Assembly: GCA_963823115.1 (NCBI GenBank)
Contig: CAWGKJ010000015.1
Location: forward strand, 70,795-134,794
Direction of reading: 5' to 3'
Origin: an uncultured Alphaproteobacteria bacterium
Lineage (GTDB): Bacteria > Pseudomonadota > Alphaproteobacteria > Rhizobiales > Xanthobacteraceae
DNA: 64,000 nucleotides
Made by a program: the position numbers and the translations under genes. Of this stretch, positions 16,824-61,841 are shown piece after piece. Each line of letters starts with the position of its first letter. The stretch's first letter is position 1. The notes under the pieces are model-generated. The model was given only the letters and a program-made list of their open reading frames with translations, searched no databases and had not been told where the DNA came from.

Positions 16824-18134
16824 CGACAATTATCACGCGACCCAAAGCCAAACCGGCCGACGTCATCAAGGACGCTTCCATGACGAAGCAGAAGGAGATG
16901 ATGGCCGGGCACTACGAGCGGCTGGCCAATGCGCCCGAGAGCGGCGAAAAGGTGGCTGCGACTTTCGTTCCGGGCAATCTCAACGAATTATTGATGTGCT
17001 TCGGTTTTGCCAACAATTTGCCCGAGGTCAACGCGATCCAGAACGGTCTGCGCAAGACGAGCGGGGGTTTCGTCATGGAAGCCGAAAAGCTCGGCCATTC
17101 CGAGGACGTCTGCACTTACGTCAAGTCCGACATCGGCATGATGGCCAAGGGCAATATCGGTCCCAACGGGCGCAAGCTCCCGGATCCGGACGTGTTGCTG
17201 TTGTCCTACACCGGCTGCTTCACCTTCATGAAGTGGTTCGAGTTGCTGCGCCAGCAATACAATTGTGAAACGATCATGCTTCACACGCCCTACCTGGCGG
17301 ACGGAAAAATCACCAAGGACATGGTCCAGTACATGGTGAAGCAACTCAAGCAGGATGTCATTCCAAAGCTCGAGAAGGTCTCCGGCGTCAAGTTCGACAT
17401 CGACCGGCTGCGTGAATATCTGCGCAAGTCGGCCAAGGCTGAAGATGATCTCGTGTGGGTGCTACAAAGCGCCAAGACCAAACCGTCGCCGATCGACGCC
17501 TATTTCGGGGGCATCTATTATATCGGGCCGATTTTTGGCGCCTTCCGTGGCACCGACGATGCAATCGACTACTATCGGTTTCTGCGTGAAGAGGTCGAGG
17601 AGCGCGTCGCGCAGGGCAAAGGCCCGGTCACGCCGGACGGGGACATGGGCAAGGAGCGATATCGCCTCGTTGTCGAGGGGCCGCCGAACTACACCAACTT
17701 CCGCCAGTTCTGGAAGATGTTCTATGACGAGGGGGCGGTGGTCGTCGCCTCGAGCTACACCAAGGTTGGCGGCACCTATGATTTCGGGTTCCGGCATAAC
17801 CCGGACCATCCGCTTGAAATCGCTCGCCGAATACTGCCTGAATGTCTACACCAATCGGAACCTGCCGATGCGCGTCGACATGCTGGAAAACTATGTCAAC
17901 GAATATGAGGCGGACGGGCTTCTGATCAACTCGATCAAGAGCTGTAACAGCTTCTCGGCCGGCCAATTGCTGATGATGCGCGAAGTGGAAAAGCGGACGG
18001 GTAAACCGGCGGCTTTCATCGAGACCGATCTTGTCGATCCCCGCTATTTCTCGGCGGCCAACGTCAAGAACCGGCTCGAGAGCTATTTTCAGATGATTGA
18101 ACAGAAACGCGCTGGCATGCGCGGTGCCGCCTAG
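16820..18134 (+). CDS. bcrB: Benzoyl-CoA reductase subunit B (BadE homolog), +1 frameshift at ~17818
   Basis: [32 protein letters not shown]. Continues in the next frame as SLAEYCL...[13 protein letters not shown]...NRLESY. Extra A in cttgaaatcg. Confidence 0.93.
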
Positions 18135-18142
18135 GAGAAGTC

Positions 18143-19456
18143 ATGCGCACCTTCATTGGGATCGACCTCGGCTCGACCACGACGAAAGCCGTTCTGCTCG
18201 ACGAAAACCAGGACGTCGTCGGACGCGGAATCACCAACTCGCGTTCCAACTACGGCACCGCGGCGCGCGTCGCCAGCGAGGAGGCGCGAATTGACGGACG
18301 TTTCACGTTGTTTCGCCGTGCCCTGAGTTCGGGCGAAGCCAACGGCGAGCGCGTTCAGGAGTTCCTGGGCGCCCTGGAACGAAACTTTCGTCTCGTTCAA
18401 TTCCTGGAACAGCTCAACGACCTGGAAGCGACCTGCATCGGGCAATTGCAGACCGAACGGTTCGCGAAAGTAGCCGAAAAAATGGGCGAGGCGCTGAACG
18501 AAGTGTTCCGGCGCCTGAAGGCCGAAGCGCCGGAGCTTTACGCCCCGGGCGCCAAGCGCAAGTCGGACTTTTTCCGCGATATCGCCGGTTCCCGCTTTCA
18601 CGTGCACGCCGAGGCGGTCGCCCGCGAGTCGGCCGTGCCGCACGATATATTGCTGAACGCCTACGACAAGTCGATCATCGAAGTCGAAAACAGGCCGCCG
18701 GCCGGCGACATGAGCGACAAGTTTCGTCGCGCCATGGCGCGCGTACTCGAAATTGACCCGCATCTCATCGACGGGTCGAACAATGTCCCGGGCACGATCG
18801 AGGATACGCTCGGCATCGAACTCGAAGAGACCTATCTGGTTGGCACGGGTTATGGGCGCGTCACGTTGCCGTTCTCCAAGGAGCATATCCGCTCGGAGAT
18901 TCTCTGCCATGGGCTCGGTGCCCACATGATGTATCCGAAAACCCGAACGGTCCTCGACATCGGAGGACAGGACACCAAGGGCATCCAGGTCGACAACGCT
19001 GGCATTGTCGAAAATTTCCAGATGAACGATCGCTGCGCGGCGGGCTGTGGCCGCTATCTCGGCTATATCGCCGACGAGATGAACATGGGTCTGCACGAAC
19101 TCGGGCCTCTGGCGATGAAGTCGAACAGGCCAGCGCGCATCAATTCCACGTGCACCGTGTTCGCCGGTGCGGAACTGCGCGATCGCCTGTCGCTTGGAGA
19201 AAAGCGCGAGGATATTCTGGCCGGCCTTCATCGCGCGATCATCCTGCGCGCGATCTCCATCATCTCGCGATCGGGTGGCGTGACGGATGAGTTCACCTTC
19301 ACCGGCGGCGTCGCCAAGAATGAGGCCGCGGTTCGGGAATTGCGCAAGTTGATCAAGGAAAATTACGGTGATGTGACGATCAACATCAATCCGGATTCCA
19401 TCTATACGGGCGCGCTCGGCGCCGCCGAATTCGCGCGTCGCGCGGTCGCTTCCTGA
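18143..19456 (+). CDS. bcrA: Benzoyl-CoA reductase subunit A (BadF homolog)
   Basis: [44 protein letters not shown] (ASKHA ATPase). Confidence 0.95.
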
Positions 19457-19470
19457 AACAGGAGAATTTC

Positions 19471-20313
19471 ATGCCCATCACAGCAGGGATCGACGTCGGA
19501 ACTGGCGCCATCAAGGTCGCGCTTTTCAATGTGGAAGGCGCCGCCGAAACGTGCCTTGTCAAGCGCGTTGACCGCATGCGCCAACGTGATCCGATGAAGC
19601 TCGCGGAACAAATGTACGATGACGCCCTCGCGGAGGCCGGTCTGAAGCGAAAGGACGTCGCTTATTGCGCGACCACGGGCGAAGGCGAGGCGCTGCATTT
19701 TCATACGGGCCATTTCTATTCCATGACCACGCATGCCCGCGGAGCGATTTATCTGCGCCCGGACTGCCGCGCCGCGCTCGATATCGGCGCCCTGCATGGC
19801 CGCGCCATTCGTCTCGACGAGCGTGGCAAGGTGCTCAACTACAAAATGACGAGCCAATGTGCGTCGGGCTCCGGCCAATTCCTGGAGAATATCGCGCGCT
19901 ATCTCGGCATCGCCCAGGATGAAATCGGCACCCTGTCGAAACAGGCCGACAATCCGGAGAAAGTGTCGGGCATCTGCGCAGTGCTCGCCGAGACTGACGT
20001 CATCAACATGGTGTCTCGGGGCATTACGGCGTCGAATATCCTCAAGGGAATTCACGAGTTGATGGCGGATCGCCTGGCTAAACTCCTGAAGACGGTCGGC
20101 GGGCTCGATGGAACTGTCCAAATGACCGGCGGTCTCGCGCTGGACGCCGGTTTGGTCGAGGCGATGAAAGAGTCGATGCTTCGGGAGAAGGTCAAGGTTC
20201 CGATTGAGAGCCATCCCGATGCGATTTTTGCCGGCGCCTTCGGTGCGGCGCTGTGGGGAGCTTTCCGGCACGACAAGCTGGCGCTCCTTGCCGAGCAAGC
20301 CACGGCCGCGTAA
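19471..20313 (+). CDS. bcrD: Benzoyl-CoA reductase subunit D (BadG homolog)
   Basis: GIDVGTG, HFYSMTTHARGA, KMTSQCASGSGQFLENI, CAVLAETDVINMV. Confidence 0.95.
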   Translation: MPITAGIDVGTGAIKVALFNVEGAAETCLVKRVDRMRQRDPMKLAEQMYDDALAEAGLKRKDVAYCATTGEGEALHFHTGHFYSMTTHARGAIYLRPDCRAALDIGALHGRAIRLDERGKVLNYKMTSQCASGSGQFLENIARYLGIAQDEIGTLSKQADNPEKVSGICAVLAETDVINMVSRGITASNILKGIHELMADRLAKLLKTVGGLDGTVQMTGGLALDAGLVEAMKESMLREKVKVPIESHPDAIFAGAFGAALWGAFRHDKLALLAEQATAA

Positions 20314-20604: not shown

Positions 20605-21237
20605 ATGCAATCGGTCCGGTTGAAGGTCTATTCGATCGATGGCGTGACGCCGGTGGTGCACCCGCTTGCCTTTGTTCATCCCGAGGCGGTTCTGATAGGC
20701 GACGTAATCGTCGAGGAAGGCTGTTATGTCGGTCCTTGCGCGTCGCTTCGGGGCGATTTCGGGCGAATCATCGTCCGGAAGGGGTCGAACGTTCAGGACA
20801 ACTGCACCTTGCATAGCATGCCGGGCTTCGATTGCGATATCGGAGCCAACGGCCATATCGGGCATGGCGCTGTCATTCACAGCGCGCAGCTCGGTTCCAA
20901 CGTTCTTATCGGGATGAACGCCGTGGTGATGGATCACGCGCGGATCGGCGAAGCCGCGATGATCGGGGCAATGAGCTTTGTGAAGGCAGGCGCCGAAGTG
21001 CCAGCCCGTCATCTTGCCGCGGGCGTTCCGGCTCGGGTGTTGCGGGAGCTTTCAGCGGACGAACTCGCCGGGAAGGTCGAGGGTACGAAAGTCTACCAGG
21101 AGCTTGCGCGCCGGTGCCTGGCTTCGTTACGGCTTGCCGAGCCTCTCGCGCATTTCGACGCGAACCGTCGCAGGGTGGATGCCGACATCGTCCTTCCGGC
21201 GCGGAGCGCGGCGGAGGCGGCGAAGCGACGCGGCTAG
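20605..21237 (+). CDS. PaaY-like hexapeptide-repeat (gamma carbonic anhydrase fold) protein
   Basis: VYSIDGVTPVVHP, ASLRGDFGRI, NVQDNC, GHIGHGAVIH. Confidence 0.85.
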   Translation: MQSVRLKVYSIDGVTPVVHPLAFVHPEAVLIGDVIVEEGCYVGPCASLRGDFGRIIVRKGSNVQDNCTLHSMPGFDCDIGANGHIGHGAVIHSAQLGSNVLIGMNAVVMDHARIGEAAMIGAMSFVKAGAEVPARHLAAGVPARVLRELSADELAGKVEGTKVYQELARRCLASLRLAEPLAHFDANRRRVDADIVLPARSAAEAAKRRG

Positions 21238-21257
21238 ATGCACGCCCCTTCAACCCG

Positions 21258-21271
21258 TTGATTTAAATCAA
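21258..21271. promoter_or_regulatory. Perfect FNR/AadR box
   Basis: TTGAT-TTAA-ATCAA upstream of the 21350 ORF/hbaR unit. Confidence 0.85.
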
Positions 21272-21349
21272 TGCAAGCAGAAACCCGGTCGGAAACAGTT
21301 TCAAACAACAGCAAGATAATTCACGAATAGCCTCCGGGAGGATGGTCTA

Positions 21350-21787
21350 ATGATCGCAAAGTCGGTCGGTTGGACGACGGGTGGCCCGCCCCGCCATCTT
21401 GATCCCGTGGAATCCAGCAAAAAAAACCTGGGCCCGGACGAGGTTCTCGTCAAGATTGACGGGCGCCAAGCAAGGGGCATCGATCTCAAGACAGCCTGCG
21501 ACGGCGGGGATAAGACGCTTGGATCGCAAGCGGTCTGCCGCGGTGTCCCTGGCCGCGTCGTGGAGGCTGGCGCGAACGCGTTGTGGTATGTGGACCGCTC
21601 CGTCATTGTTCCTGCCGAAGGCAAGTGCGCAAGTTGCGACGCGGTCCAGCGCGACCGGGCAGCGGCACACTTCGGCGAAAACCTGATCGAAAATGATGAT
21701 GACGAGACACCTGCCAGGCTCGTCGTTGTGCGGGCAAGCGAACTCTGTGTGGTGTCGACGATCATCGATTGGCAGAAACCAGCATAG
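21350..21787 (+). CDS. Degenerate stand-alone paralog of the Had N-terminal (GroES-like) domain
   Basis: Aligns by eye with Had (EVLVKI/EVVVAV, GRVVEAG/GRVVATG, RSVIVPA/RAVIIPA, CASCD/CGECD). Most Zn ligands are lost and there is no NAD domain. GGGAGG RBS. Confidence 0.65.
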   Translation: MIAKSVGWTTGGPPRHLDPVESSKKNLGPDEVLVKIDGRQARGIDLKTACDGGDKTLGSQAVCRGVPGRVVEAGANALWYVDRSVIVPAEGKCASCDAVQRDRAAAHFGENLIENDDDETPARLVVVRASELCVVSTIIDWQKPA

Positions 21788-21867
21788 GTCGTAGTTCCGA
21801 TGCCGCGATCACGGTCGGCCTGGTTGTGCGTCTGCTCGCTTCGTCGCGAATGATTGGAGAGCTGGCT

Positions 21868-22593
21868 ATGGAATCGAAATTAACGGCCGGTGACCTCCAG
21901 GTGATCGCGCGCATCGCGGTGTTTCGCGGACTGAAGCCGGAAACCGTCGAGCACATCGTCGCGCCTGCGAAAGCCATCACGTTGCGACCGCGCGAATTGA
22001 TTGCCCGTCAGGACGAACCGGCGACCGCGTTCTTCATCGTGATCTACGGTTGGATAAAGCTCTATTGCAGCCTGTCATCGGGCGACGAGACGATCATCGA
22101 GACAGTTACAAAGGGCGGGAGCTTTGCCGAAGCCGTTGCATTCACCGGGAATCGATATCTTGCGACCGCCGAAGCGGTGGGCGAGGCGCGCATTGCACGA
22201 ATCCCCGCGGATCACGTCGTCCGCTGTATTCGTGACAACCCCGACATTGCGATGCCGATGATCGCGTCGATCTCTCAGCATATGAATTATCTCGTCCAGC
22301 ATATCAAGCAGCTCAAGGCGCAAAGCGGCGTTCAGCGGTTGGCCGAATATCTCGCGTCATTGTCGTTGGCGGAGCAGGGCCGTTGCGCGTTGGCGCTACC
22401 CTATGACAAGACCGTGATAGCAGGACAACTCGGTCTTAAGCCCGAGTCGTTGTCGCGGGCCTTCGCAAAGTTGAGAACGATCGGTGTCATGGTCGATGCG
22501 TCGCGCGTCGTCGTCGAGGACGTTGCCAAGCTCCGTCAGATTGCTGCCGACCATCGGGGTGTGGTGCAGGGCCCGCTGCGGCCCGAGAGTTGA
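21868..22593 (+). CDS. hbaR: Crp/Fnr-family regulator, HbaR-like
   Basis: cNMP-binding fold (GGSFAEA), HTH with LGLKPESLSR, no N-terminal Cys cluster. Near hcr/hbaA and downstream of an FNR box. Confidence 0.72.
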   Translation: MESKLTAGDLQVIARIAVFRGLKPETVEHIVAPAKAITLRPRELIARQDEPATAFFIVIYGWIKLYCSLSSGDETIIETVTKGGSFAEAVAFTGNRYLATAEAVGEARIARIPADHVVRCIRDNPDIAMPMIASISQHMNYLVQHIKQLKAQSGVQRLAEYLASLSLAEQGRCALALPYDKTVIAGQLGLKPESLSRAFAKLRTIGVMVDASRVVVEDVAKLRQIAADHRGVVQGPLRPES

Positions 22594-22683
22594 CGTCAGT
22601 TGTCGCCTATCGGCCAATTCCATAGTGCAAGCGCAGGAACGCACCGACCGTATCTTTCAAGTCCAACCAACGGAGATCTCCTA

Positions 22684-23094
22684 ATGCCATCGCAGCGTCT
22701 TGACCCACCGGGCTGGAAGCCACCGATCGGTTATGCGAACGGAATCAGCGTCGCGGCAGGCCAAATCGTGTTCATTGCCGGCCAGGTCGGATGGGATGCG
22801 GAGCAGCATTTCCAGAGCGAACAGCTCGTGCCGCAGTTTGAGCAGGCCCTCAAGAACATCCTCGCTATTCTTGCCCAGGCAGGCGGCAAGGCGACAGACA
22901 TCTGCAGGATTACGGCGTTTTGCATCGACAAGCCGGCTTACCTCGCCAACCGGCGCGAACTGGGACGCATCTGGAAATCCCTGATCGGAGACCATTATCC
23001 GGCGATGAGCATGATATTTGTCGCCGATCTTCTCGACACCCCTGCAAAGATTGAGTTGGAAGCGACAGCGGTCCTGCCCAATCCAGCGAAGTGA
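22684..23094 (+). CDS. RidA/YjgF-family enamine/imine deaminase
   Basis: PPGWKPPIGYANG, FIAGQVGW, HYPAMS, KIELEATAV. GGAG RBS. Confidence 0.88.
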   Translation: MPSQRLDPPGWKPPIGYANGISVAAGQIVFIAGQVGWDAEQHFQSEQLVPQFEQALKNILAILAQAGGKATDICRITAFCIDKPAYLANRRELGRIWKSLIGDHYPAMSMIFVADLLDTPAKIELEATAVLPNPAK

Positions 23095-23111
23095 GCACCG
23101 ATCCCACGACC

Positions 23112-23149
23112 GCGACGCAGTCAGCATTTCAGCGCTGCGTCGCTTTCTT
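23112..23149 (+). terminator. Putative intrinsic terminator between convergent ridA-like gene and hcrB
   Basis: GCGACGCAG...CTGCGTCGC stem followed by TTTCTT. Confidence 0.45.
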
Positions 23150-23220
23150 GCGCGTCAAGCCGGACGATTGACTGTCAGCGCTGAAAGGCGCCAGCGCCAG
23201 CCGGGCGTCAGAAGTGTTGT

Positions 23221-24204
23221 TCAGGCCTTGCACTCGGCGAACAGGCTTGCGGTCAGCCGGCGGGCTAGCGCCGCAGCCGATACCCGCCGATAGTTGGCGG
23301 ACGCAAGGGTGGTTCGCATCGGCTGGACCTGCTTTTGCACCAGCCGATCGATCTCCTGCAGGAGATGGTCATCGACCGATCGCAGCGCGAAACCATCGGT
23401 GCCTGACAGAAGGAATGGGCGGGAATTGGTGCCTGTCAGCGCGATCCGAAGTGAACCGATGTTTGCGCCGGATGGCGTGAGCGCAACCGCTACCCCGGCC
23501 AACGGATAGTCGATGGCGCCGCGCACCCGCACTTTCGCGTAGGCCGACAGCGGCGAGTTTGGCGGGAGATGGACGCCGGCGACGAGTTCGCCGTCCGCCA
23601 AGGCAAGATGCGCCTTGCCATCCTCGACATAAAGCTCCTGCAAGGGAATTCGCCGAATGCCCTGCGCGCTGGCGATATCCACCTCGGCGCCGAGAACAAG
23701 CAGAGCCGGCGCCAGATCGCCACTGAAGGCGGCGTGGCAACGTTTGCCTTGCGGCGCGACGTGACAAATATCGCCGCGGTTCTTGAGGCAATATGAATTC
23801 GCGTGCCGCCACCATTCGCTCTGGTTGTAGTAAATGCAGCGGGTATCGAGGCACAAATTTCCGCCGAGCGTTCCCAGGTTGCGGTGGCCGGGTGCGGCGA
23901 TTGCTCCGGCAGCCTGCGCCAGGGCGCGATAGTGCTTCCCGACGGCGGCGTTGCCCGCAATCGATGCGATCGTGACGCCCGCGCCGATCGTCATTCCGCC
24001 GTCGCTGGAATTGATCCCGGCAAGTTCGCCAATACCTGAAATATCAACCAGCAAATCCGGCTGCGTGATGCCACGGCGAATGTTCACGAGCAGGTCTGTT
24101 CCGCCCGCGACCATGCGGCTCCGCGGATGCGACAGCAGCGCCGCGATCGCCTCCTTGAGGGTGGCGGGTTTCGTGAGGCGCAGTTCGGCTAAGGCTAAGG
24201 TCAC
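23221..24204 (-). CDS. hcrB: 4-hydroxybenzoyl-CoA reductase beta (FAD, [4Fe-4S]) subunit (HbaD homolog)
   Basis: AGGTDLL, TLGGNLCLDTRCIYYNQSEWWR, CLK..GDICH insertion, RGAIDYPLAG. Confidence 0.93.
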   Translation of the reverse strand: MTLALAELRLTKPATLKEAIAALLSHPRSRMVAGGTDLLVNIRRGITQPDLLVDISGIGELAGINSSDGGMTIGAGVTIASIAGNAAVGKHYRALAQAAGAIAAPGHRNLGTLGGNLCLDTRCIYYNQSEWWRHANSYCLKNRGDICHVAPQGKRCHAAFSGDLAPALLVLGAEVDIASAQGIRRIPLQELYVEDGKAHLALADGELVAGVHLPPNSPLSAYAKVRVRGAIDYPLAGVAVALTPSGANIGSLRIALTGTNSRPFLLSGTDGFALRSVDDHLLQEIDRLVQKQVQPMRTTLASANYRRVSAAALARRLTASLFAECKA

Positions 24205-26534
24205 GATGCGGCCTTTGAACGTGCGAGCTTCGCCTTCCGGCGACGCTGGATGAGCGCTTCCACGACCCGGTCGGGGGTCACGGGCAATTCGTCGAAGTCG
24301 ATGCCGATTGCGTTGGCGATCGCGTTGACCATGGCTGGCGGGAAGCCGGCCAATGCGCCCTCGCTTGCCTCCTTTGCCCCGAAGGGCCCGAATGGATCGT
24401 GGCTTTCAACGATATGAACTTCGATCGGCGGAGATTCGGCGATCGTCGGCATGCGGTATTCGAGGAAACTCGCATGGGCCGCCAAACCATCGAGATAGCG
24501 GGTCTCTTCGCACAGCGCCTGGCCCATCCCCATCCAGACCGATCCCTCGATCTGTCCTACCACCGCAAGCGGATTGATCGCATGGCCGCAGTCCAGCGCA
24601 ACCCACACTTTTTCGATTGTCACCAGGCCGGTCGCATCGTCGACGCTCACCTCGACCACCTGGGCGCCGTAGCTGAAGCCCATGGTGGAGCCGACGGCGC
24701 CGCCGCGATGCTTGCCGCCCTGGAATTCGGGAGGGCAGGTGAAAGTTCCCTTCACAGTGATGGCGCCCTCGTCGACCAGCGCAGCGGCGACGACTTCGTC
24801 GAAGGGCAGGGCCGACTGGCCTCCCGTGCCGACGCGAAAAGTCTCTCCTATGCACTCGATCTCTTCCGGGCGGGCCTCCAGCTTGCGTGCGGCCGCGGCA
24901 ACCAGCTTGGCTTTCAGCTGCTTTGCGGCGTCGATCGCCGCGTTACCCACCATGAAAGTGATCCGTGACGAGTAAGCGCCGTTATCCTTCGGCGTGATGG
25001 CGGAATCGCCGGCAATGACGCGGATTCGACCGAGCGAGACGTCCAGCGTTTCCGCCACGGCGATCGCGACCATTGTCGAGGATCCCTGACCGATATCGGC
25101 CGCGCCCGTGAGCGCCGTAATCCCACCATCGAAGTCTACCTTGAGATTCACCAAAGCGTGCGGTTCGCCCGTGAAATGAATCGGTTTGGCAGACCCGCTG
25201 ACGTAGTGGGAGCAGGCCATGCCAAGGCCTTTGCCCGGCGGCATGTGACCGGCGCGTTCGCGCCATTGGCTCGCCCGCTCGACCTTGTCGAGACATTCGG
25301 GGAGTCCGTAGCTGTTCACCACCAAACCGTTCAGCGTCTGGGTGGGTGCCTGCAACAGGTTGGCACGGCGCACGGCGAACGGATCCAGCCCGAGTTCGCG
25401 GGCCATGCGGTCGACGAGACATTCGAACGTGTGGCGCATGTCGACCGAGCCGTGTCCACGCATCGCGCCGCAAGGCGGAAGATTGGTGTAGGCTCGGTAG
25501 CCGTCGTATTTGAGCGCTGGAATATCGTAGAGGCCCTGCAACAGAGCGCCCGCATAAAGGATCGTCACGATGCCATATCCGGCATACGCGCCGCCGCGCT
25601 GGACCACTTCGCAGGCGCAGGCAGTAAACCGGCCATCGCGCCGCATCCCGATCCGGAGGATGACGTCCGTTTGCGGTCGCGCGCGGTGAGTGAGGAACGT
25701 CTCCTCCCGGGTCAGCCGCATAAGTACCTTGCCGGCGGCCGCGCGTGCGAGAAGAGCCGTTATGATTTCAAAATTCAGGACCTCGACGCGCGCGCCAAAA
25801 CCGCCGCCGATAAACGGTTTCACCACACGGATCTGCGCTTCGGTCATCCGCAGGCATCGCGCCAGCATCAGGTGCAGGTAATAGCCGACCTGAGAAACGC
25901 TCTGGACAGTGAGCCGGTCGGTTATCGGGTCGTAATCCATCAGGCAGACATGCGGCTCGATTTGAGCGTGATTGACTTCCGCACAGTCGATCTTGACCTG
26001 GCGGACCAGATCCGCCGTTTCGAAGCCCTGTCGCCAGTCGCCAAACTCGTGATGAACCTCGCGTTCCAGATTGCCGGACTTGTTGTCATGCAACAGCATT
26101 GCGCCAGGAGCGCGAGCTTCTTCGGACGTGTAATAAGCGGGTAGCTCGCGCAGCTCCAGTTCGATCAGATCGAGCGCGCGTTCGGCCGTTTCCGCATTGA
26201 CCGCGGCCACCGCCGCTATCGGCTCACCGCGGTAGCGTACGCGACCCCGGGCCATCGGATACTCGTTCATGGCGATGGGGAGCACGCCATAGGTGAGGTC
26301 GCAGTCATCGCCGGTGATGACCGCCTCGACGCCTTCGAGCGCGCGAGCTCGGGACACGTCGAGCTTGACGATTTCTCCGTGGCTCACCGGGCTTCGCAGA
26401 ATGCGTCCGACAAGTGCGCCGGTATGGTCCAGATCGGCGGTGTAACGCGCGCGCCCGGTGACCTTCTCGATCCCGTCGATCAGGGGGACGCCGCGACGGC
26501 TGAGGCCGCCGTGAGTAACCGGTTCAGCAGTCAT
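24201..26534 (-). CDS. hcrA: 4-hydroxybenzoyl-CoA reductase alpha (Mo-cofactor) subunit (HbaC homolog)
   Basis: DGIEKVTGRA, GGGFGAR, GAMRGHG, DNGAYSSR, GGAVGSTMGFSY, GAKEASEG. Confidence 0.93.
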   Translation of the reverse strand: MTAEPVTHGGLSRRGVPLIDGIEKVTGRARYTADLDHTGALVGRILRSPVSHGEIVKLDVSRARALEGVEAVITGDDCDLTYGVLPIAMNEYPMARGRVRYRGEPIAAVAAVNAETAERALDLIELELRELPAYYTSEEARAPGAMLLHDNKSGNLEREVHHEFGDWRQGFETADLVRQVKIDCAEVNHAQIEPHVCLMDYDPITDRLTVQSVSQVGYYLHLMLARCLRMTEAQIRVVKPFIGGGFGARVEVLNFEIITALLARAAAGKVLMRLTREETFLTHRARPQTDVILRIGMRRDGRFTACACEVVQRGGAYAGYGIVTILYAGALLQGLYDIPALKYDGYRAYTNLPPCGAMRGHGSVDMRHTFECLVDRMARELGLDPFAVRRANLLQAPTQTLNGLVVNSYGLPECLDKVERASQWRERAGHMPPGKGLGMACSHYVSGSAKPIHFTGEPHALVNLKVDFDGGITALTGAADIGQGSSTMVAIAVAETLDVSLGRIRVIAGDSAITPKDNGAYSSRITFMVGNAAIDAAKQLKAKLVAAAARKLEARPEEIECIGETFRVGTGGQSALPFDEVVAAALVDEGAITVKGTFTCPPEFQGGKHRGGAVGSTMGFSYGAQVVEVSVDDATGLVTIEKVWVALDCGHAINPLAVVGQIEGSVWMGMGQALCEETRYLDGLAAHASFLEYRMPTIAESPPIEVHIVESHDPFGPFGAKEASEGALAGFPPAMVNAIANAIGIDFDELPVTPDRVVEALIQRRRKAKLARSKAAS

Positions 26535-27019
26535 GATTTGACGTCCGCTGCCGACTTGACCAATTCAAGAACTTTCACATAGCCCGTGCAGCGACAGAGA
26601 TTTCCGGACAGGGCGGAGCGTATCTCGTCGTCGGTAGGTGACGGATTGCGGCGTAACAGACCTTCCGCCGCCATGATCATTCCGGGGGTGCAAAAGCCGC
26701 ATTGCGCGCCCAGCTTCTCATGAAAGGCGCGCTGCAGCCGGCTGAGCTTGCCGTGCTTCGCCAGGCCTTCGACGGTTTCGACGTGGCGCCCCTCGCAGCG
26801 AGCCGCAAGCACGATACAGGACGGCACCGGCTCGTCGTCGATCAATACCGTGCATGCCCCGCACTCGCCGCCGTCGCAGCCGGTTTTCACGCCGGTGAGG
26901 TGCGCAACGTCGCGCAAGTAGTCGACGAGTAATTGTCCTTCTGCGACCGCGTCCTCGCGCATCCGCCCGTTGAGCTTAAGTTTTAGTAAACGCATCGTCT
27001 TCTGAGGCGGTGCATGCAT
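26531..27019 (-). CDS. hcrC: 4-hydroxybenzoyl-CoA reductase gamma (2x[2Fe-2S]) subunit (HbaB homolog)
   Basis: GCDGGECGAC, QCGFCTPG, GNLCRCTGY. GGAGGA RBS before ATG 27019. Confidence 0.92.
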   Translation of the reverse strand: MHAPPQKTMRLLKLKLNGRMREDAVAEGQLLVDYLRDVAHLTGVKTGCDGGECGACTVLIDDEPVPSCIVLAARCEGRHVETVEGLAKHGKLSRLQRAFHEKLGAQCGFCTPGMIMAAEGLLRRNPSPTDDEIRSALSGNLCRCTGYVKVLELVKSAADVKS

Positions 27020-27069
27020 CGAAACTGCTCCTCCAGCAGATAGTCTCCTCCCTTTGGGGTCGATGTTCC

Positions 27070-27136
27070 ATGACAAAAGTCAAGACATGGGAACAAATCG
27101 GTCGGAACATTGGGTGTTTCACCTGACCGAAGTCAA
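27070..27136. promoter_or_regulatory. Two Crp/Fnr-like TGAC-N4-GTCA boxes in the hcrC/hbaA divergent promoter
   Basis: ATGAC-AAAA-GTCAA (27070-27083) and CTGAC-CGAA-GTCAA (27123-27136). Confidence 0.55.
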
Positions 27137-27196
27137 GGAACGGTCTTCCGTTCGCCGGTAAACGGGAAGCTTCGGATCTGATCGGCGAGGTCGGCA

Positions 27197-28750
27197 ATGA
27201 CGGTTCGCGATTACAATGCTGCTGTCGATTTCGTTGATCGGAACGTCGCCGAAGGCCGGGGCGACAAAACCGCTTTTATCGATCCTTCGCGCAATCTGAC
27301 CTATGCGGAACTGCGGGACACCGCGGCGCGTGTCGGCCCGATGCTGGCGCGTCTCGGCATCGAAAGGGAAGACCGGATCGCAATCGTGTTGCTCGATACG
27401 GTTGAATTTCCGATACTCTTCTGGGGAGCTATACGGGCCGGCATAGTTCCGGTTCTGCTCAATACGCGGATAGCCGTCGACGAATATCGGTACCTGCTCG
27501 AAGATTCTCGCGCCAAGGCGGTATTTGTTTCGGCCGCTCTGCTTCCCGTTATCGAAGAGGCAGCGGCCGGGTTGCCAGATCTCAAGAGGATAGTTGTCGT
27601 TGGCGGAGGCCCTGCATCGAAGCCCCGCCTCGACGCGCTATTGGCGGCCGAGAATGAAGGTTCCGCGCCGGCGCGGACCTGCGCCGATGATGTCGCGTAT
27701 TGGCTCTACTCGTCCGGCACCACGGGAATGCCCAAAGGGGTCATGCACGTGCATTCCAGCCCGAGGCTTTTGGCGGAAAGCGCCGGCAAGCGCCGTATCG
27801 GTTATCGCGAGGACGACGTCGTGTTTTCCGCGGCGAAACTGTTCTTCTCCTATGGCCTCGGAAATGCGATTTTTTGTCCGATGTGGGTTGGAGCGACTTC
27901 AGTATTCTATCCGGAGCGGCCGACCCCGCAGACCGTCTTCGAGGTGCTGCGGGGGTATCAGCCGACGATGTTTTTCGCGGTCCCTACGCTCTATGCCGCA
28001 ATTCTTGCCGATCCGGAATGCACGGCGCAAAACATGTCGGGCCGGCTGCGATTGTGTTTTTCGGCCGGGGAAGCATTGCCGGCGCATGTTGGAGAGGCTT
28101 GGAAGGAACGATTCGCAATCGATATCGTGAACGGCGTCGGCTCGACCGAAATGGGGCATCTCTTTCTTACCAATCTTCCTGATGCCGTTGAATACGGCAC
28201 GTCGGGCGTCCCGGTGCATGGCTACCAGCTCAGACTGATCGACGAAGAGGGGCTGGACGTCGGCGATAACGAGATCGGCGAGCTTTTGGTAAATGGTGGA
28301 TCGGCGGCAGCAGGCTATTGGAACCAGCGAGAAAAATCGCGTCGTACATTCTTGGGCGAGTGGACGCGCACCGGCGACAAATACTTTCGGCGCCCGGACG
28401 GAGTTTACACATATTGCGGTCGTACCGACGATATGTTCAAAGTCAGCGGGATCTGGGTGTCGCCGTTTGAGGTTGAGGAAGCATTGACCAGCCATCCGCT
28501 GGTCGTCGAGGCCGCAGTCGTGCCCGCCGAGGACTCCGATGGCTTGATCAAGCCGAAGGCATACGTAGTGCTTGGCGACTGTGCCGCGAATGATTCCGAT
28601 TTGGCGCTTTACGAGGAACTCAAAGGGCATGTGAAACGGACGATCGGTCCATGGAAGTATCCGCGGTGGATCGTGTTCGTCGACAATTTGCCCAGAACCC
28701 CAAGCGGAAAACTTCAGCGCTTTCTGCTGCGCGAGATGGGGCATTCCTGA
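27197..28750 (+). CDS. hbaA: 4-hydroxybenzoate-CoA ligase (benzoate-CoA ligase family)
   Basis: YNAAVDFVDRN, YSSGTTGMPKG, FSAAKLFF.YGLGN, GSTE, WKYPRW. Divergent from hcrCAB. Confidence 0.85.
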   Translation: MTVRDYNAAVDFVDRNVAEGRGDKTAFIDPSRNLTYAELRDTAARVGPMLARLGIEREDRIAIVLLDTVEFPILFWGAIRAGIVPVLLNTRIAVDEYRYLLEDSRAKAVFVSAALLPVIEEAAAGLPDLKRIVVVGGGPASKPRLDALLAAENEGSAPARTCADDVAYWLYSSGTTGMPKGVMHVHSSPRLLAESAGKRRIGYREDDVVFSAAKLFFSYGLGNAIFCPMWVGATSVFYPERPTPQTVFEVLRGYQPTMFFAVPTLYAAILADPECTAQNMSGRLRLCFSAGEALPAHVGEAWKERFAIDIVNGVGSTEMGHLFLTNLPDAVEYGTSGVPVHGYQLRLIDEEGLDVGDNEIGELLVNGGSAAAGYWNQREKSRRTFLGEWTRTGDKYFRRPDGVYTYCGRTDDMFKVSGIWVSPFEVEEALTSHPLVVEAAVVPAEDSDGLIKPKAYVVLGDCAANDSDLALYEELKGHVKRTIGPWKYPRWIVFVDNLPRTPSGKLQRFLLREMGHS

Positions 28751-28885
28751 ATGTTCGAGATTGAAACCATGGCTCGATATTCGAACTCACAATGGCGCGT
28801 GATGCTGATCGAGCCCCAGGAGACCCACAAACTGTTCAACGCCGCCGACACCCGCAAGAGGGGCAAGGCATTTCTCGATAAATGA
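28751..28885 (+). pseudogene. Short ORF ending in a crotonase-like C-terminal remnant
   Basis: 44 aa ending ETHKLFNAADTRKRGKAFLDK*, resembling the F...D..EG..AF.EK tail of enoyl-CoA hydratases. Confidence 0.35.
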
Positions 28886-28895
28886 GGGTTAAAAC

Positions 28896-29636
28896 ATGAG
28901 GCTCGAAGGAAAAACCGCAGTAGTCACCGGGGCCGCTTCCGGTATCGGTCGTGCGACCGCCGAGACCCTGGCTCGCGCTGGCGCGAATGTCATCATTGCC
29001 GATCTTTCCGCCGACAAGGGCGAGGAGGAGGCCGCACGCCTTCGCAACAGCGGTCTAAAGGCCAGCTTCATGCGGATCGATGTTGCATCCGACGAATCCA
29101 TTGCCGCTTTTGCAAAGCTCGCACTGGGGCAGGGCGAGGTGCACGTCTTGGTGAACTGCGCCGGCTTCGGCAAAGGACAACCCTTCGTCGACAATGACAC
29201 GGCATTCTGGGAGCGCGTCGTCGACATCAACATGCTCGGGCCGATCAAGCTCACGCGCGCGTTGCTCGGGCCAATGATCGATCGGCGGTCGGGCAAGATC
29301 GTCAACGTCGCAAGCGACGCAGGGCGGGTCGGCAGTTCTGGCGAAACCGTCTATTCCGGCGCGAAGGGCGGCCTGATCGCCTTCAGCAAAGGGCTGGCCC
29401 GCGAGATGGCGCGCTATTCGATCAACGTGAATTGCGTGTGTCCCGGGCCTACCGAAACTCCGATGTTAATGGCTTTGCCGGAGAACCACCTGGAGGCGTT
29501 CAAGCGCGCGATTCCGTTGCGCCGGTTCGGCCAGCCCACAGATATCGCCAACGCTATTCTGTTTTTCGCCAGCGATTTGTCGAACTACATCACCGGTCAG
29601 ACGCTGAGCGTGTCCGGTGGATTGACGATGGCCTGA
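28896..29636 (+). CDS. Short-chain dehydrogenase, BadH/BzdZ-like
   Basis: TGAASGIG, VASDAGRVGSSGE.VYSGAKGG, CPGPT, YITGQTLSVSGGLTM. Paralog of 59081-59848. Confidence 0.88.
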   Translation: MRLEGKTAVVTGAASGIGRATAETLARAGANVIIADLSADKGEEEAARLRNSGLKASFMRIDVASDESIAAFAKLALGQGEVHVLVNCAGFGKGQPFVDNDTAFWERVVDINMLGPIKLTRALLGPMIDRRSGKIVNVASDAGRVGSSGETVYSGAKGGLIAFSKGLAREMARYSINVNCVCPGPTETPMLMALPENHLEAFKRAIPLRRFGQPTDIANAILFFASDLSNYITGQTLSVSGGLTMA

Positions 29637-29666
29637 TCGGGCCGCCACAAGGCAAGGGAGACACAC

Positions 29667-30497
29667 GTGCAGACGTTCAAAGCCGCCGAATATAAAGCGA
29701 CACATTTTCAGTGGGAGGTTTTGGGAAAGGTTGGGACGATTACCCTGAACCGGCCGGAACGCAAGAACCCGCTGACTTTCGAGAGCTACGCCGAGCTCAG
29801 GGACCTATTTCGAAGCCTGTCCTATGCAAGCGATGTGAAGACCGTGGTCGTTACTGGCGCGGGCGGAAATTTCTGCTCGGGCGGCGACGTGCATGAGATT
29901 ATCGGTCCGCTGGTGAAAATGCAGGAGGCCGACGACATGCAGGGCCTGCTTGCGTTCACGCGCATGACGGGCGATCTGGTCAAGGCGATGCGGCATTGTC
30001 CGCAGCCGATTATCGCCGCGGTGGACGGCATCTGCGCGGGGGCGGGGGCGATCGTTGCCATGGCGTCCGATATGCGGTTCGGTACGCCGCGGGCGAAGAC
30101 GGCCTTCCTGTTCGTGCGTGTCGGGCTTGCCGGCGCCGACATGGGTGCCTGCGCCATCCTGCCGCGTATCATCGGGCAAGGTCGCGCGTCGGAGCTTCTC
30201 TACACCGGACGTGTCATGACCAGCGAGGAGGCCGACAAATGGGGCTTCTTCAACCGCGTTGTGGCGCCGGAAGAGGTTCTGGCGGCGGCTCAGACGCTGG
30301 CAAAGGAACTCGCCGACGGCCCGACGTTCGGCCATGCCATGACCAAGAACTGTTTGCACCAGGAATGGGCACTCGACGTCGATTCCGCCATTGAGGCCGA
30401 AGCGCAAGCGCAGGCGATCTGCATGCAGACCAAGGATTACGGCCGGGCCTATCGCGCCTTCGTTGCCAAGCAGAAGCCCGTATTCGAGGGGAATTGA
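29667..30497 (+). CDS. Enoyl-CoA hydratase-family protein of the type found in 2-aminobenzoyl-CoA (abm) clusters
   Basis: [56 protein letters not shown]. Confidence 0.85.
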
Positions 30498-31679
30498 TGG
30501 CCGACCGGAGCTTCCTCTCCTGGCCATTCCTGGAGCCACGTCACCAGGATTTGTATGATTCCGTTGACGCCTGGGCGTCAGCCAATCATGCGATCCTGCA
30601 CGGCGAGGATGAGTCGAGCGTTGCCGCCGCGGCGACTGTTCGCCGCATCGTCGCGGAATTCGGGAAATCCGGGCTGCTGGCGATCGCCACCGGTGGCGGG
30701 AAGGGCACATTCCACGGGCCGCTCGATGCGCGCAGCCTATGCATCTGCCGTGAGGTCCTGGCGCGTCACGCGGGACTTCGCCGATTTTGCGTTTGCGATG
30801 CAGGGGCTCGGCACGGGGCCGATCGGCTTGTTCGGTACGGACGAGCAGAAGAGCCGCTGGCTGCCGGCCGTTGCGCAGGGCAAGGCGATCTCCGCTTTCG
30901 CGCTCTCGGAGGCGGCCGCTGGTTCGGACGTGTCCGCTCTCGCCATGAGTGCGACACGCGACGGGAACGGTTGGCGGCTCGACGGCGAGAAGACGTGGAT
31001 TTCCAACGCGGGTATCGCCGATCTCTATGTCGTGTTCGCGCGTACTGGCGAGGCGCCGGGCGCTAAGGGCCTGTCGGCCTTCGTCGTGGAGGCTACAACG
31101 CCGGGCTTCTCCGTCCCCAAGACAATCGACCTCATCGCGCCACACCCGATAGGCAAGCTCGCCTTCGCTGGTGTTAAAGTGACGGAGGCCGATCTGCTCG
31201 GCGCGTCCGGTCAAGGGTTCCAGATCGCCATGGCCACTCTGGACGTATTCCGTTCGACCGTCGGCGCCGCCGCTCTCGGCTTCGCGCGGCGGGCACTGGA
31301 CGAGGCGTTAAAGCATGCCAGCGCGCGCAAATTGTTCGGTCAGCCCTTGTCCGATTTCCAACTCACGCGCGCCAAGCTCGCCGACATGGCGCTCGCGATC
31401 GATGCAGCCGCATTGCTGATTTACCGCGCCGCTTGGACAAAAGATGTGAAAGGCGCGCGCATCAGCCGCGAATCCAGCATGGCGAAGCTGTTCGCCACCG
31501 AGGAGGCGCAGAAAGTCATCGACTCCGCCGTGCAAATCTTCGGCGGCCTCGGCGTCACCCACGGCCACATCGCCGAAAAGCTCTATCGTGAGATCAGGGC
31601 ATTGCGGATCTACGAAGGCGCAAGCGAGGTCCAGAAACTCGTCATCGCGACGCGCGTTCTCGCCGAATTCCAGGCCTAG
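30497..31679 (+). CDS. Acyl-CoA dehydrogenase, +1 frameshift at ~30777
   Basis: [11 protein letters not shown]..., then [45 protein letters not shown]. Confidence 0.87.
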
Positions 31680-31703
31680 ACTGGAACGTCGTTGCCGGCG
31701 GGG

Positions 31704-32162
31704 TCAGGCTCCGTCGGCGGTGGAGCGAGCCGGGACCTTGGCGTCCGCCTTTGTGCCACCCTTGTGCCTTTCGATGATCCTGAGCAGCGTGGTGATCGAT
31801 ATCGAACGCAGCGAAGCAATCGCGAAGTCATCGATCTCGCGAAGAACCTTGTGCAACGCGCGGCCTTCATCCAGGTAAACGGGCGGCGAATCTTCCGCGT
31901 CGCGGCCGACCTCTTCGAACAGTTCGATGACGTCGAGCAGTGTCACGCGCTTTGCATTTCCCGAGAAGCGGTAGCCGCCGCCAGCGCCGCGCACAGATTC
32001 AACGAGTTTCGCGCGCACCAGACTTCGCAGCACTTTGGCCAGGTGATTGAGCGAAATATCGTATTTAGTCGCGATTTGAGCGGCAGAAATCTGTTGATCG
32101 GAATGCGCCGCAAGCTCCAGTACCGCATAAAGTCCGCAAAGCGTCGCCTTTTGTAACTTCAT
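31704..32162 (-). CDS. badM: Rrf2-family repressor, BadM-like (no Fe-S cysteine triad)
   Basis: LYAVLELA, HLAKVL..L, VESVRGAGGGY. Adjacent to a badL-like GNAT. Confidence 0.78.
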   Translation of the reverse strand: MKLQKATLCGLYAVLELAAHSDQQISAAQIATKYDISLNHLAKVLRSLVRAKLVESVRGAGGGYRFSGNAKRVTLLDVIELFEEVGRDAEDSPPVYLDEGRALHKVLREIDDFAIASLRSISITTLLRIIERHKGGTKADAKVPARSTADGA

Positions 32163-32244
32163 CGGCTTCGTTCTTCTGACAGATTGCGCCCGACCAGGAC
32201 GCCCCGAACGGGCGCCGCAAACGGACTCAAAGCGACTTCAAAGT

Positions 32245-32724
32245 TTAGTCGAGGTCTTTCTCCAACTGAATAAACGGTCCTGCCATCATCCCCAGGCTTC
32301 GAAAGAAAGCCTGGACGAGATGATTGTCGCGTTTCAGCATTGTTCGCACCTTCTCGATACCGGCCTGCCTGAAAGTTTCGCACAAAGCCTCGAAAAGCCG
32401 GGTTCCCACGTTGTGCACCCGGATCTCCTGGTCGACGTTCAAAGCAAAGACCCAGCCACAAGGCTCAGATCCGAATTCGAACGCCCTGACCTCGCCGGTG
32501 ATGAAGCCTACCACCCGCCCGTGCTGTTCGGCGACCAGAAACGCCCGGCCGCTGCCACGCGATTGCTGAAAATCGGTGAATAAATCCTGCCAATACTGGC
32601 GCTTGGCTTGGCCAGTCGTCTTTTCATCGAGACTTGCGATCCAGGGAATATCACCGGCCTGTGCCGTCCGTATTTCGACATCGCCGAATGGAAGATCTCC
32701 CTCCAGCTTGGTCGGACTGTTCAT
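32245..32724 (-). CDS. badL: GNAT acetyltransferase, BadL-like
   Basis: GFITGEVRAFEFGSEPCGWVF, FFRSLGMMAGPFIQLE. Upstream of badM. Confidence 0.78.
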   Translation of the reverse strand: MNSPTKLEGDLPFGDVEIRTAQAGDIPWIASLDEKTTGQAKRQYWQDLFTDFQQSRGSGRAFLVAEQHGRVVGFITGEVRAFEFGSEPCGWVFALNVDQEIRVHNVGTRLFEALCETFRQAGIEKVRTMLKRDNHLVQAFFRSLGMMAGPFIQLEKDLD

Positions 32725-32783
32725 TCCCGTCTCCCGCTTTGCTCCGGTCTGGCTGTTAGACGCCCGAATGACGCGATTAGCTA

Positions 32784-32797
32784 TTGATCTGAATCAA
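32784..32797. promoter_or_regulatory. Perfect FNR/AadR box between badL and the iaa operon
   Basis: TTGAT-CTGA-ATCAA. Confidence 0.85.
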
Positions 32798-32830
32798 AGA
32801 CACTTGGCAATCGGGCTATATCTTGGCTTA

Positions 32831-32838
32831 TGTATACA
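32831..32838. promoter_or_regulatory. Candidate GntR/FadR operator core
   Basis: TGTATACA palindrome about 40 bp upstream of the GntR gene. Confidence 0.4.
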
Positions 32839-32879
32839 GTACACGGAATGCGGTATCCGCGACAAGAAACGGCAAGATA

Positions 32880-33578
32880 ATGGGAGCGCTCAAGACCCTC
32901 GAACGCCCGCGTTCTCTGGGGGATCGTGCCTATCACAGTCTCCGCGAACACCTGCGTTCCGGGGTGATCGTGATCGGCCAGCCGCTGCAGGAAGAGGTGC
33001 TTGCGGCACAGCTTGGCGTCTCGCGCACACCGGTGCGCGAAGCCCTGACCAGACTGGCAAGCGAGGGTTTGCTGGTATCCGACGGACGAAGTTTTGTCGT
33101 TCCGGCGCTCACCGAACGTGACATTGACGAGATTTACGAGCTGCGCCTGATGCTGGAGCCCGAGGCGCTGCGGCGCGTGGCCGAGGAAATGACCGATCCG
33201 GGCAAGCTGCGCGGACTGCGCCGTAACCTGGTGGCGATGCGCGCCGCCCACGCGGCGGATGACGCCGAGGCCTTCATGAAGGGCAACTACGGCTACCGCG
33301 CCGCCTGGATGGAACTGGTGCCCAACCGAAAGCTGGTGCGTGCCATCGAGCTTTACGCCGACCATGTGCGTTTCCTGCGCTCGCTTACCCTGGGTGACCG
33401 GAAGACCCGCGAGGTGGTGATGAAGGGCCTCAAACGCTTGCTCGAGAGCCTGGCGGCGGCTGATGGCGACGGCGCTGCCATCGCCATGCGCGGCCATCTG
33501 ATCGAGGCCAAGCGCATCCTCGGCAAGGCGATCGAACCTGAACAACGTTTGGACGGTGAGCATGACACACCAGGCTGA
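32880..33578 (+). CDS. iaaR: GntR-family (FCD) regulator of the iaa cluster
   Basis: LAAQLGVSRTPVREAL, EIYELRLMLE. First gene of the iaa block. Confidence 0.82.
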   Translation: MGALKTLERPRSLGDRAYHSLREHLRSGVIVIGQPLQEEVLAAQLGVSRTPVREALTRLASEGLLVSDGRSFVVPALTERDIDEIYELRLMLEPEALRRVAEEMTDPGKLRGLRRNLVAMRAAHAADDAEAFMKGNYGYRAAWMELVPNRKLVRAIELYADHVRFLRSLTLGDRKTREVVMKGLKRLLESLAAADGDGAAIAMRGHLIEAKRILGKAIEPEQRLDGEHDTPG

Positions 33579-59848: not shown

Positions 59849-60017
59849 TTTCCGCTCCCACAACCCCGGTTTAACCGATGTGGCGCCGCCACATCTATTT
59901 CTCGGATATTCCTGCCGGCGCCGGTATCGCGCCGTCCATCGCTCAAATCGCATCCGTCGTGTCTTCTGCGACTTCTGAACTTCGGCGACGGACGCCAAGT
60001 ATTGCTATTCAAAATAA

Positions 60018-60127: not shown

Positions 60128-60156
60128 ATTTATAATGTCACATGGAGGAGTCAAAC

Positions 60157-61756: not shown

Positions 61757-61841
61757 TCAGTCGCGGCGGCTGTCCAGCTCAAAGCTGCCGGCGAACGCGC
61801 CACGGCGAATAACGGGGACGGCACGTTTTCGGCCGCCACGA

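Follow-up and report, generated by a model that had tools for sequence, protein, structure and literature searches.

The 64,000-nucleotide stretch analysed here (the window; positions 70,795 to 134,794 of contig CAWGKJ010000015.1, hereafter C15) belongs to a metagenome-assembled genome (MAG) of an uncultured Xanthobacteraceae bacterium (G000; 7.15 Mb in 65 contigs, 89% completeness, 3.9% contamination). It carries an island of anaerobic aromatic-degradation genes, within which our subject is a ligase-headed operon encoding a short-chain dehydrogenase/reductase (SDR), a crotonase and an acyl-CoA dehydrogenase (ACAD), together with a Rid-family gene that lies beyond the divergent 4-hydroxybenzoyl-CoA reductase genes (Table 1). 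Genes were called by scanning Pfam and NCBIfam profiles against family cut-offs, with a PDB search for relatives of the ligase and the crotonase. The upstream part of the window holds PaaX and kor/ior genes followed by had (12673), oah, dch and bcrCBAD (15639-20313), so that ring reductase and lower pathway are of Thauera type, and iaa-like genes start at 33556. A first-pass annotation of this DNA had placed a RidA-like gene, an SDR, a crotonase and an ACAD between bcr/hcr (hcrBAC, 23221-27076) and iaa, and all four are there, down to the ACAD start at 30497; what it missed were the benzoate-CoA-ligase-family gene before the trio, a hydratase remnant and an abmA gene on another contig, C31. 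With moderate confidence we regard the SDR-crotonase-ACAD trio as a portable lower-pathway cassette, present once in this genome, that would act after dearomatisation of a substituted benzoyl-CoA.

Table 1. Features of the regulator-Rid-hcr-cassette region, in window coordinates.
Feature	Position	Strand	Basis and remarks
CRP/FNR-family regulator (HbaR/AadR-like)	21769-22593	+	PF00027 and PF13545
Rid-family protein, Arg-to-Met subfamily (YPAMS motif)	22684-23094	+	PF01042, 65.6 bits
hcrB, 4-hydroxybenzoyl-CoA reductase	23221-24204	-	
hcrA, 4-hydroxybenzoyl-CoA reductase	24201-26534	-	
hcrC, 4-hydroxybenzoyl-CoA reductase	26531-27076	-	
Benzoate-CoA-ligase-family gene (BadA/HbaA-like)	27197-28750	+	TIGR02262, 836 bits; first in operon
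Enoyl-CoA hydratase (ECH250) remnant, 44 codons	28751-28885	+	blastn against locus L051 and direct read
BadH-like SDR (SDR_B)	28896-29636	+	PF13561/PF00106; BadH best NCBIfam model
PaaG-like crotonase, NF006107/PRK08258	29667-30497	+	490 bits, cut-off 330
Acyl-CoA dehydrogenase (ACAD)	30497-31679	+	Pfam/NCBIfam; apparent +1 frameshift near 30775-30777
Rrf2 regulator (BadM/BadL-like pair with GNAT)	31704-32162	-	Between cassette and iaa genes
GNAT protein (BadM/BadL-like pair with Rrf2)	32245-32724	-	Between cassette and iaa genes

The first-pass annotation read the lack of a flavin monooxygenase/reductase as the mark of an oxygenase-less module. Its observation holds, since PF00724, PF01494 and NF006101 have no match on C15 within the window; the module it proposed does not. 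NF006101/PRK08255, the model for AbmA and salicylyl-CoA hydroxylase, a fusion of an FAD monooxygenase and an old yellow enzyme (OYE) reductase, is matched on C31 (68849-71115) by an abmA-like gene in three consecutive frames that cover model positions 1-231, 231-472 and 462-761 and score 304 + 280 + 504 = 1088 bits against a cut-off of 1078. Its neighbours are a MarR gene, an AbmG-like ligase, an ABC transporter and a thiolase. Ligase, MarR gene and abmA share 81-85% DNA identity with abm loci of same-genus genomes, a homology that ends at the 5' end of abmA, where the congeners have crotonase and SDR. This genome is not oxygenase-less. A further contig (C39:146000-159999; L153) has within 6 kb genes for an abm-type SDR (52%) and an OYE-like protein and, on the opposite strand, a separate FAD-monooxygenase half (NF006101 positions 1-382, 389 bits), which may together form a split AbmA-like system.

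Across 301 genomes of the order Hyphomicrobiales, the NF006107 crotonase occurs in 88 and abmA in 92, with both present in 87 and usually 1-3 kb apart, and the usual abm cluster reads abmA-SDR'-(MarR)-crotonase-ACAD-ligase-Rid. In most Hyphomicrobiales and Burkholderiales, the crotonase and ACAD of the cassette directly adjoin AbmA. Genes for the iaa-type hydantoinase were found in eight of the 301 genomes, seven of which also have hcr. Strict co-occurrence with abmA, which the first-pass annotation had listed as evidence that would contradict it, is closely approached: abmA accompanies the crotonase in 87/88 genomes, the SDR_B-type cassette in 13/15, and the iaa-type genes, together with the crotonase, in 8/8. 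The hcr genes are present in 16 of the 301 genomes and in none of eight sampled from this organism's family, which argues that the bcr/hcr/iaa island was acquired. In genome G121 about 10 kb separates the iaa-type hydantoinase genes from abmA-ligase-Rid (C71:22613-40441, partly L063); there, an SDR_B-type cassette and hcr share another contig (C11), 40 kb apart. A direct juxtaposition of hcr and abmA is seen in G056 (C88:5120-14296), where hcrA is divergent from an abmA-crotonase cluster.

The surroundings of the cassette were compared across the 80 loci whose crotonases are closest to that of the window. Twenty-five have the order (CRP)-(Rid)-hcrBAC<>ligase-ACAD-second ACAD-ECH250-SDR_B-crotonase, with ligases 68-83% and Rid proteins 74-82% identical to those of the window and, at the equivalent position, CRP/FNR regulators 62-72% identical; 13 are abmA-linked, and a CoA-transferase or an OYE-MarR pair is found in some of the rest. 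The closest relative, L051 (proteins 93-96% identical), is arranged hcrC<>ligase-ECH250-SDR-crotonase-ACAD. In each of the five hcr-linked genomes tested, bcrA and the crotonase are on one contig, 15-26 kb apart; in G000 the distance is 11.5 kb. Three of the five have a second, abmA-linked crotonase, full abmA was not found in one, and window-type iaa genes were found in none (best match 42% identity), so that the cassette is not tied to indoleacetic acid (IAA). Of nearer relatives, three of five have bcrA, and abmA is present in four of five genomes tested. Other cultured carriers are Rhodovulum sp. PH10 and Stella vacuolata ATCC 43931, with the cassette at loci L098 and L108. Phreatobacter aquaticus (G077) and Mesorhizobium koreense (G301), complete genomes without bcrA, contain cassettes 87-89% identical to that of the window; their abmA operons have no crotonase and ACAD of their own, and the cassette lies elsewhere in the genome. 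Fuller cassettes include an additional canonical hydratase, a second ACAD and a family-III CoA-transferase. Rhodoblastus and Methylobacteriaceae MAGs (L053/L054, L077, L080, L081, L088) have a lone crotonase of 86-88% identity preceded by genes for a 484-aa OYE protein and for MarR, with SDR and ACAD not nearby, and in L054 IOR-like genes precede this OYE-MarR-crotonase group.

The crotonase is the sole NF006107 gene in G000 and is 64-78% identical to abmA-adjacent copies, which belong to the same NCBIfam equivalog. It has Ile129 and Phe149 at the positions of Glu144 and Glu164 of rat enoyl-CoA hydratase and keeps Asp158; ECH250 and Dch have Glu at both catalytic positions. Among solved structures with a named function, PaaG isomerases are nearest to it (131-142 bits; PDB 4FZW chain C and 3HRX), and because it is PaaG-like with both hydratase glutamates replaced, 'hydratase' is probably a misnomer. 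An identity as a BadI-like ring hydrolase was dropped on the same grounds. PaaG, the 1,2-epoxyphenylacetyl-CoA isomerase, likewise has neither glutamate, and Asp158 aligns with the PaaG aspartate of the G-L-x-P-D-x-G segment; the two differ in that the crotonase scores 161 bits against the PaaG equivalog cut-off of 345, has a one-residue insertion before the aspartate and sits in another pathway context.

The trees of the crotonases and of the Rid proteins differ. In the crotonase tree, abmA-linked and SDR_B/hcr-linked contexts interleave, with at least six changes of the abmA label forced by well-supported branches on a poorly resolved backbone. Two ancient paralogue clades, one hcr-linked and one abmA-linked, are not supported, and the mixing fits a single reaction type used across several contexts. 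The Rid proteins, by comparison, form an hcr-linked clade of eight (the window protein and seven relatives, 74-82% identical; SH-aLRT 100) with a long stem next to the abm-type proteins. 'RidA', the name given at first pass, is right as to the family and not as to the canonical enzyme: the protein scores 50.9 bits against the canonical RidA model TIGR00004 (cut-off 106) and has Met at the position of the catalytic Arg105, as do 36 of 36 relatives. In canonical RidA this arginine binds the substrate carboxylate. The window protein is 37-53% identical to abm-linked Rid proteins and shares a P-A-M motif with 29 proteins of abm type; on sequence grounds, it is a member of a distinct hcr-linked clade related to them.

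The other operon products resemble abm enzymes unevenly. Of the abm-type set proposed at first pass, the crotonase (64-78%), the ACAD (59-72% identity to abmA-linked ACADs) and the Rid protein (37-53%) stand, and the SDR does not: it is about 33% identical to abm-linked SDRs, which are of a 3-hydroxybutyrate-dehydrogenase-like type to which it does not belong, and 81-93% identical to those of the nearest cassettes. Its best NCBIfam model is BadH (TIGR03206, 269 bits against a cut-off of 431) and not PRK12429. The ACAD start overlaps the crotonase stop (TGATG), and its position directly after the crotonase also matches abm clusters; its best model is acryloyl-CoA reductase, followed by cyclohexane-1-carbonyl-CoA dehydrogenase, and it scores 170 bits for AliB (TIGR03207) against a cut-off of 575. 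The ligase finds BadA (504 bits) and anthranilate-CoA ligase (422 bits) as its best PDB matches, is 93% identical to the ligase at the equivalent position in L051, and scores 364 bits against the HbdA model (cut-off 1000). It is not AbmG-like, with 34% identity to the abmA-linked ligase on C31, which is itself 54-93% identical to other abmA-linked ligases. Relative to L051, about 617 bp are missing between ligase and SDR, with the break at 28801/28802 by blastn; the missing stretch is most of the 250-aa canonical enoyl-CoA hydratase, ECH250, the remnant of which stays in frame. In two other metagenomes, contigs run straight across this junction with ECH250 absent, so the hydratase-less form is a natural variant.

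The flanking genes extend this picture. The CRP/FNR regulator lies 90 bp upstream of the Rid gene and is co-directional with it. The hcr subunits all exceed their equivalog cut-offs (TIGR03195, 497 bits; TIGR03194, 1305 bits; TIGR03193, 278 bits), and hcrBAC is divergent from the ligase-cassette operon. A pair of Rrf2 and GNAT genes (52% and 50% identity) is also found 3' of the cassette in L071. The hcr-ligase spacer (27076-27197) contains no FNR box, perfect boxes being confined to positions 21258 and 32784. In this divergent region AAGTCAAG occurs twice, at 27068 and at 27117 (a distance of 49 bp), and is a possible operator for the neighbouring CRP-family regulator. A promoter and terminator scan of 21200-32900 returned sites below chance expectation and is hence uninformative. 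Wetland metatranscriptome contigs identical to 29239-29548 exist, a match that cannot prove transcription by this organism. Further along the window, a near-threshold BadH orthologue (59081-59998, minus strand; TIGR03206, 428 bits against 431.2) is divergent from a second benzoate-CoA-ligase-family gene (60142-61812, plus strand; TIGR02262, 649 bits, C-terminus in another frame), so that a Rhodopseudomonas-type piece coexists with the Thauera-type had, oah and dch. The iaa-type hydantoinase A-like and B-like halves form a single 1264-aa open reading frame (36316-40110) and are two adjacent genes (59-81% identity) in 7/7 other genomes of the order that have them; the single frame may be a genuine fusion or may stem from an indel in the assembly.

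Two properties of the assembly bear on these comparisons. The ACAD has one extra base near 30775 relative to L051, and a 711-nt short-read contig from the best-matching, probable source soil metagenome has one base fewer at 30777; the frameshift is therefore an assembly error and the gene is to be read as intact. Single-base frameshifts are common in this assembly, including in bcrB (16808-18134), abmA (C31:68849-71115), the second ligase (60142-61812) and other genes, and since the one that was checked is an error, its apparent pseudogenes are not to be trusted. The possibility that C15 is mis-binned was rejected: insertion sequence (IS) copies 97-100% identical to its own occur on many other contigs, and stretches 79-85% identical are syntenic with congeners, which places C15 in G000. 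The IS-like repeats lie at both contig ends (1-20000 and 186175-206174; L154 and L156), with copies of 97-100% identity on at least eight other contigs, and a repeat of about 470 bp recurs on more than 15 contigs of G000 and in congeners.

Three known systems frame the interpretation. The abm cluster of Azoarcus evansii reportedly encodes the AbmA monooxygenase/reductase, the AbmG ligase, three beta-oxidation-type enzymes and a 'translation-inhibitor' (Rid) protein (the account attributed to Schuhle et al. 2001), and is represented in our comparisons by PRK08255-centred clusters of Hyphomicrobiales and Paraburkholderia. The window shares with these clusters the crotonase equivalog, a related ACAD, the Arg-to-Met Rid subfamily and the crotonase-ACAD order; it differs in having AbmA on another contig, a BadA-like ligase, a BadH-like SDR, and a Rid gene grouped with hcr and a CRP/FNR regulator, the whole locus being part of an anaerobic bcr/hcr island. 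For abm and for Thauera 3-hydroxybenzoate degradation we draw in part on review literature that cites the original work (PMC4539516). In Aromatoleum aromaticum EbN1, a module induced anoxically by 3-hydroxybenzoate (ebA720, ebA722, ebA723, ebA727/hcl1, ebA736 and hbrABCD) comprises two enoyl-CoA hydratases/isomerases, a 3-oxoacyl-CoA reductase of the SDR class, a CoA ligase, an ACAD and a Bcr-type reductase (PMC9765128, Table S1). This module and that of Thauera aromatica resemble the window in their enzyme classes (two crotonases, SDR, aryl-CoA ligase and ACAD), which act after a class I benzoyl-CoA reductase and are clustered with it; the window, however, is without the second, canonical crotonase, includes hcr and a Rid gene, and has a ligase that is not an HbdA orthologue. 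The hba/bad/ali genes of Rhodopseudomonas palustris (HbaR, HbaA, HbaBCD, BadH, BadI, BadK, AliAB, BadM and BadL) offer a CRP-family regulator, a BadH-like SDR, Rrf2 and GNAT neighbours and an aryl-CoA ligase divergent from 4-hydroxybenzoyl-CoA reductase genes, but the window cassette falls below all Bad/Ali cut-offs and its ring reductase and lower pathway are of Thauera type.

Gene identities, homology, synteny and co-occurrence are observed; from here on we infer substrate and step order. At about even confidence, our preferred reading is that 2-aminobenzoyl-CoA would be degraded here by a split, O2-dependent pathway, supplied from anthranilate and from the neighbouring iaa genes, with the cassette as its lower half. 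The upper half would be the abmA, MarR and AbmG-like ligase genes on C31, at a locus that lacks the crotonase and SDR flanking abmA in congeneric genomes. The acquired island would supply the crotonase and the ACAD, with a BadH-like SDR as replacement and a related Rid protein. The starting compound, 2-aminobenzoyl-CoA, would come from anthranilate or from the adjacent iaa pathway, of which it is the product (PMC9613470). When O2 is present, AbmA would hydroxylate and reduce it, and the Rid-like protein, the PaaG-like crotonase, the SDR and the ACAD would deaminate, isomerise and oxidise the AbmA product towards beta-oxidation. The same split in P. aquaticus and M. koreense supports this reading, as do the single NF006107 gene in G000, the 87/88 co-occurrence, the shared Rid methionine and the presence of abmA in every iaa genome; the mixed contexts of the crotonase tree, the proximity of iaa-type genes to abmA in G121 and the membership of C15 in G000 count for it too. 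Several points weigh the other way. That C31 and the window are coupled in trans is something we infer, and in a MAG a second cassette could be unassembled. Full abmA was not found in two cassette-bearing MAGs (G303 and G723). Three of the five hcr-linked genomes keep a separate abmA-linked crotonase, so that the hcr-linked copy must do something else there. The window SDR is of another family than the abm-linked one, the operon ligase is BadA-like rather than AbmG-like, and the cassette stands within an island of anaerobic genes with a CRP/FNR-type regulator in front.

The idea of the first-pass annotation, an O2-independent counterpart of abm in which Bcr rather than AbmA would dearomatise 2-aminobenzoyl-CoA, is a reading we consider unlikely. 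In its further steps, the chain as a whole being equally doubtful, the Rid-like protein would hydrolyse a CoA-bound enamine and the cassette, Oah or both would finish ring cleavage. The recurrence of the CRP/FNR-Rid-hcrBAC<>ligase-ACAD-ACAD-hydratase-SDR-crotonase order in 25 of the 80 nearest loci speaks for it, as does bcrA at 11-26 kb from the crotonase in G000 and five of five tested genomes, and the abmA-linked copies kept in three of these five make the hcr-linked crotonase a retained paralogue. The hcr-linked Rid proteins have a long-stemmed clade to themselves, next to the abm type, loss of the carboxylate-binding arginine might suit a thioester substrate, and the ligase family includes anthranilate-activating enzymes. 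Against it stand abmA in G000, the 87-89% identical cassettes of two complete genomes without BcrA, the five hcr-linked genomes without an iaa cluster and the deletion of the canonical hydratase from the window cassette. A dedicated cassette may moreover be superfluous, because Bcr with promiscuous Dch and Oah removes the ortho substituent of 2-fluorobenzoate without extra enzymes (PMC5742626), and hydrolysis of the Bcr product 2-amino-dienoyl-CoA would directly yield the normal Oah substrate. The conserved hcr/bcr placement behind a CRP/FNR regulator and the retained paralogues nevertheless leave some probability to a Bcr-coupled anoxic role. For the hcr/bcr-linked supercluster at large, we hold only tentatively, as an improbable proposal, that it is an O2-independent twin of abm in which Bcr would replace AbmA for ortho-amino (or meta-hydroxy) benzoyl-CoA and the Rid-like protein would be an enamine deaminase.

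The fixed placement beside hcr, the ligase and bcr would also suit a Bcr-dependent lower pathway for meta-hydroxylated benzoates, whether 3-hydroxybenzoate or protocatechuate after para-dehydroxylation by Hcr, which we regard as quite unlikely. Its enzyme classes equal those of the EbN1 module, and meta-substituted benzoates require extra enzymes (PMC5742626). As its keto tautomer, reduced 3-hydroxybenzoyl-CoA would have the same 5-oxocyclohexene skeleton as the AbmA product, which would explain why crotonase and ACAD are common to both pathways. The likeness to the EbN1 and Thauera modules is, however, drawn at the level of enzyme class, the ligase is far below the HbdA cut-off (364 against 1000 bits), the Rid-like gene and the near-universal abmA co-occurrence go unexplained, and cassettes exist in genomes without Bcr. 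The HbdA ligase family had no match in five and then in 401 Burkholderiales genomes, so this sample simply holds no 3-hydroxybenzoate genomes of the Aromatoleum/Thauera type. Cassettes in aerobes without Bcr would be accommodated by a Bad/Ali-like alicyclic acid pathway of the cyclohexane- or cyclohexene-carboxylate type, merely parked by the benzoate genes and unrelated to amino- or hydroxy-aromatics. The BadH best model of the SDR, the acryloyl-CoA reductase and next cyclohexane-1-carbonyl-CoA dehydrogenase models of the ACADs, the hydratase, second ACAD and family-III CoA-transferase of fuller cassettes and the parallel placement of ali/bad beside hba in R. palustris all lean that way. We nonetheless judge it very unlikely: all Bad/Ali equivalog models stay below cut-off (BadH 269 against 431, AliB 170 against 575), a real BadH orthologue (428 bits) lies elsewhere in the window, the crotonase is PaaG-like and not BadI/MenB-like, and this pathway, too, leaves the abmA co-occurrence and the Rid gene unexplained.

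In sum, the interpretation offered by the first-pass annotation is partly supported. The enzyme families and the abm cluster were already known; what appears to be new, as read from gene sequence and order, is that the cassette is portable, that it is split from abmA in several genomes, and that it is fixed in a bcr/hcr supercluster with a dedicated Rid (Arg-to-Met) lineage. Our literature search found no paper on a portable or split cassette or on the bcr/hcr supercluster, and nothing specific on 2-aminobenzoyl-CoA with benzoyl-CoA reductase or on 3-hydroxybenzoyl-CoA enzymes. For annotation, 'RidA' and 'enoyl-CoA hydratase' are misleading names for these proteins, and claims of gene absence need more than one window.

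The breakdown routes of IAA and tryptophan meet at anthranilate or 2-aminobenzoyl-CoA, and to our knowledge the O2-free disposal of 2-aminobenzoyl-CoA by facultative anaerobes has never been resolved at the enzyme level. If it were true, the O2-independent twin would fill a gap in the anaerobic fate of 2-aminobenzoyl-CoA that has been open since 1992. The Rid (Arg-to-Met) protein, the PaaG-like crotonase and the BadH-like SDR are candidates for biochemistry. More broadly, the lower-pathway enzymes of abm constitute a movable cassette, a version of which is wired into the bcr/hcr regulon in many Hyphomicrobiales of soil and peat.

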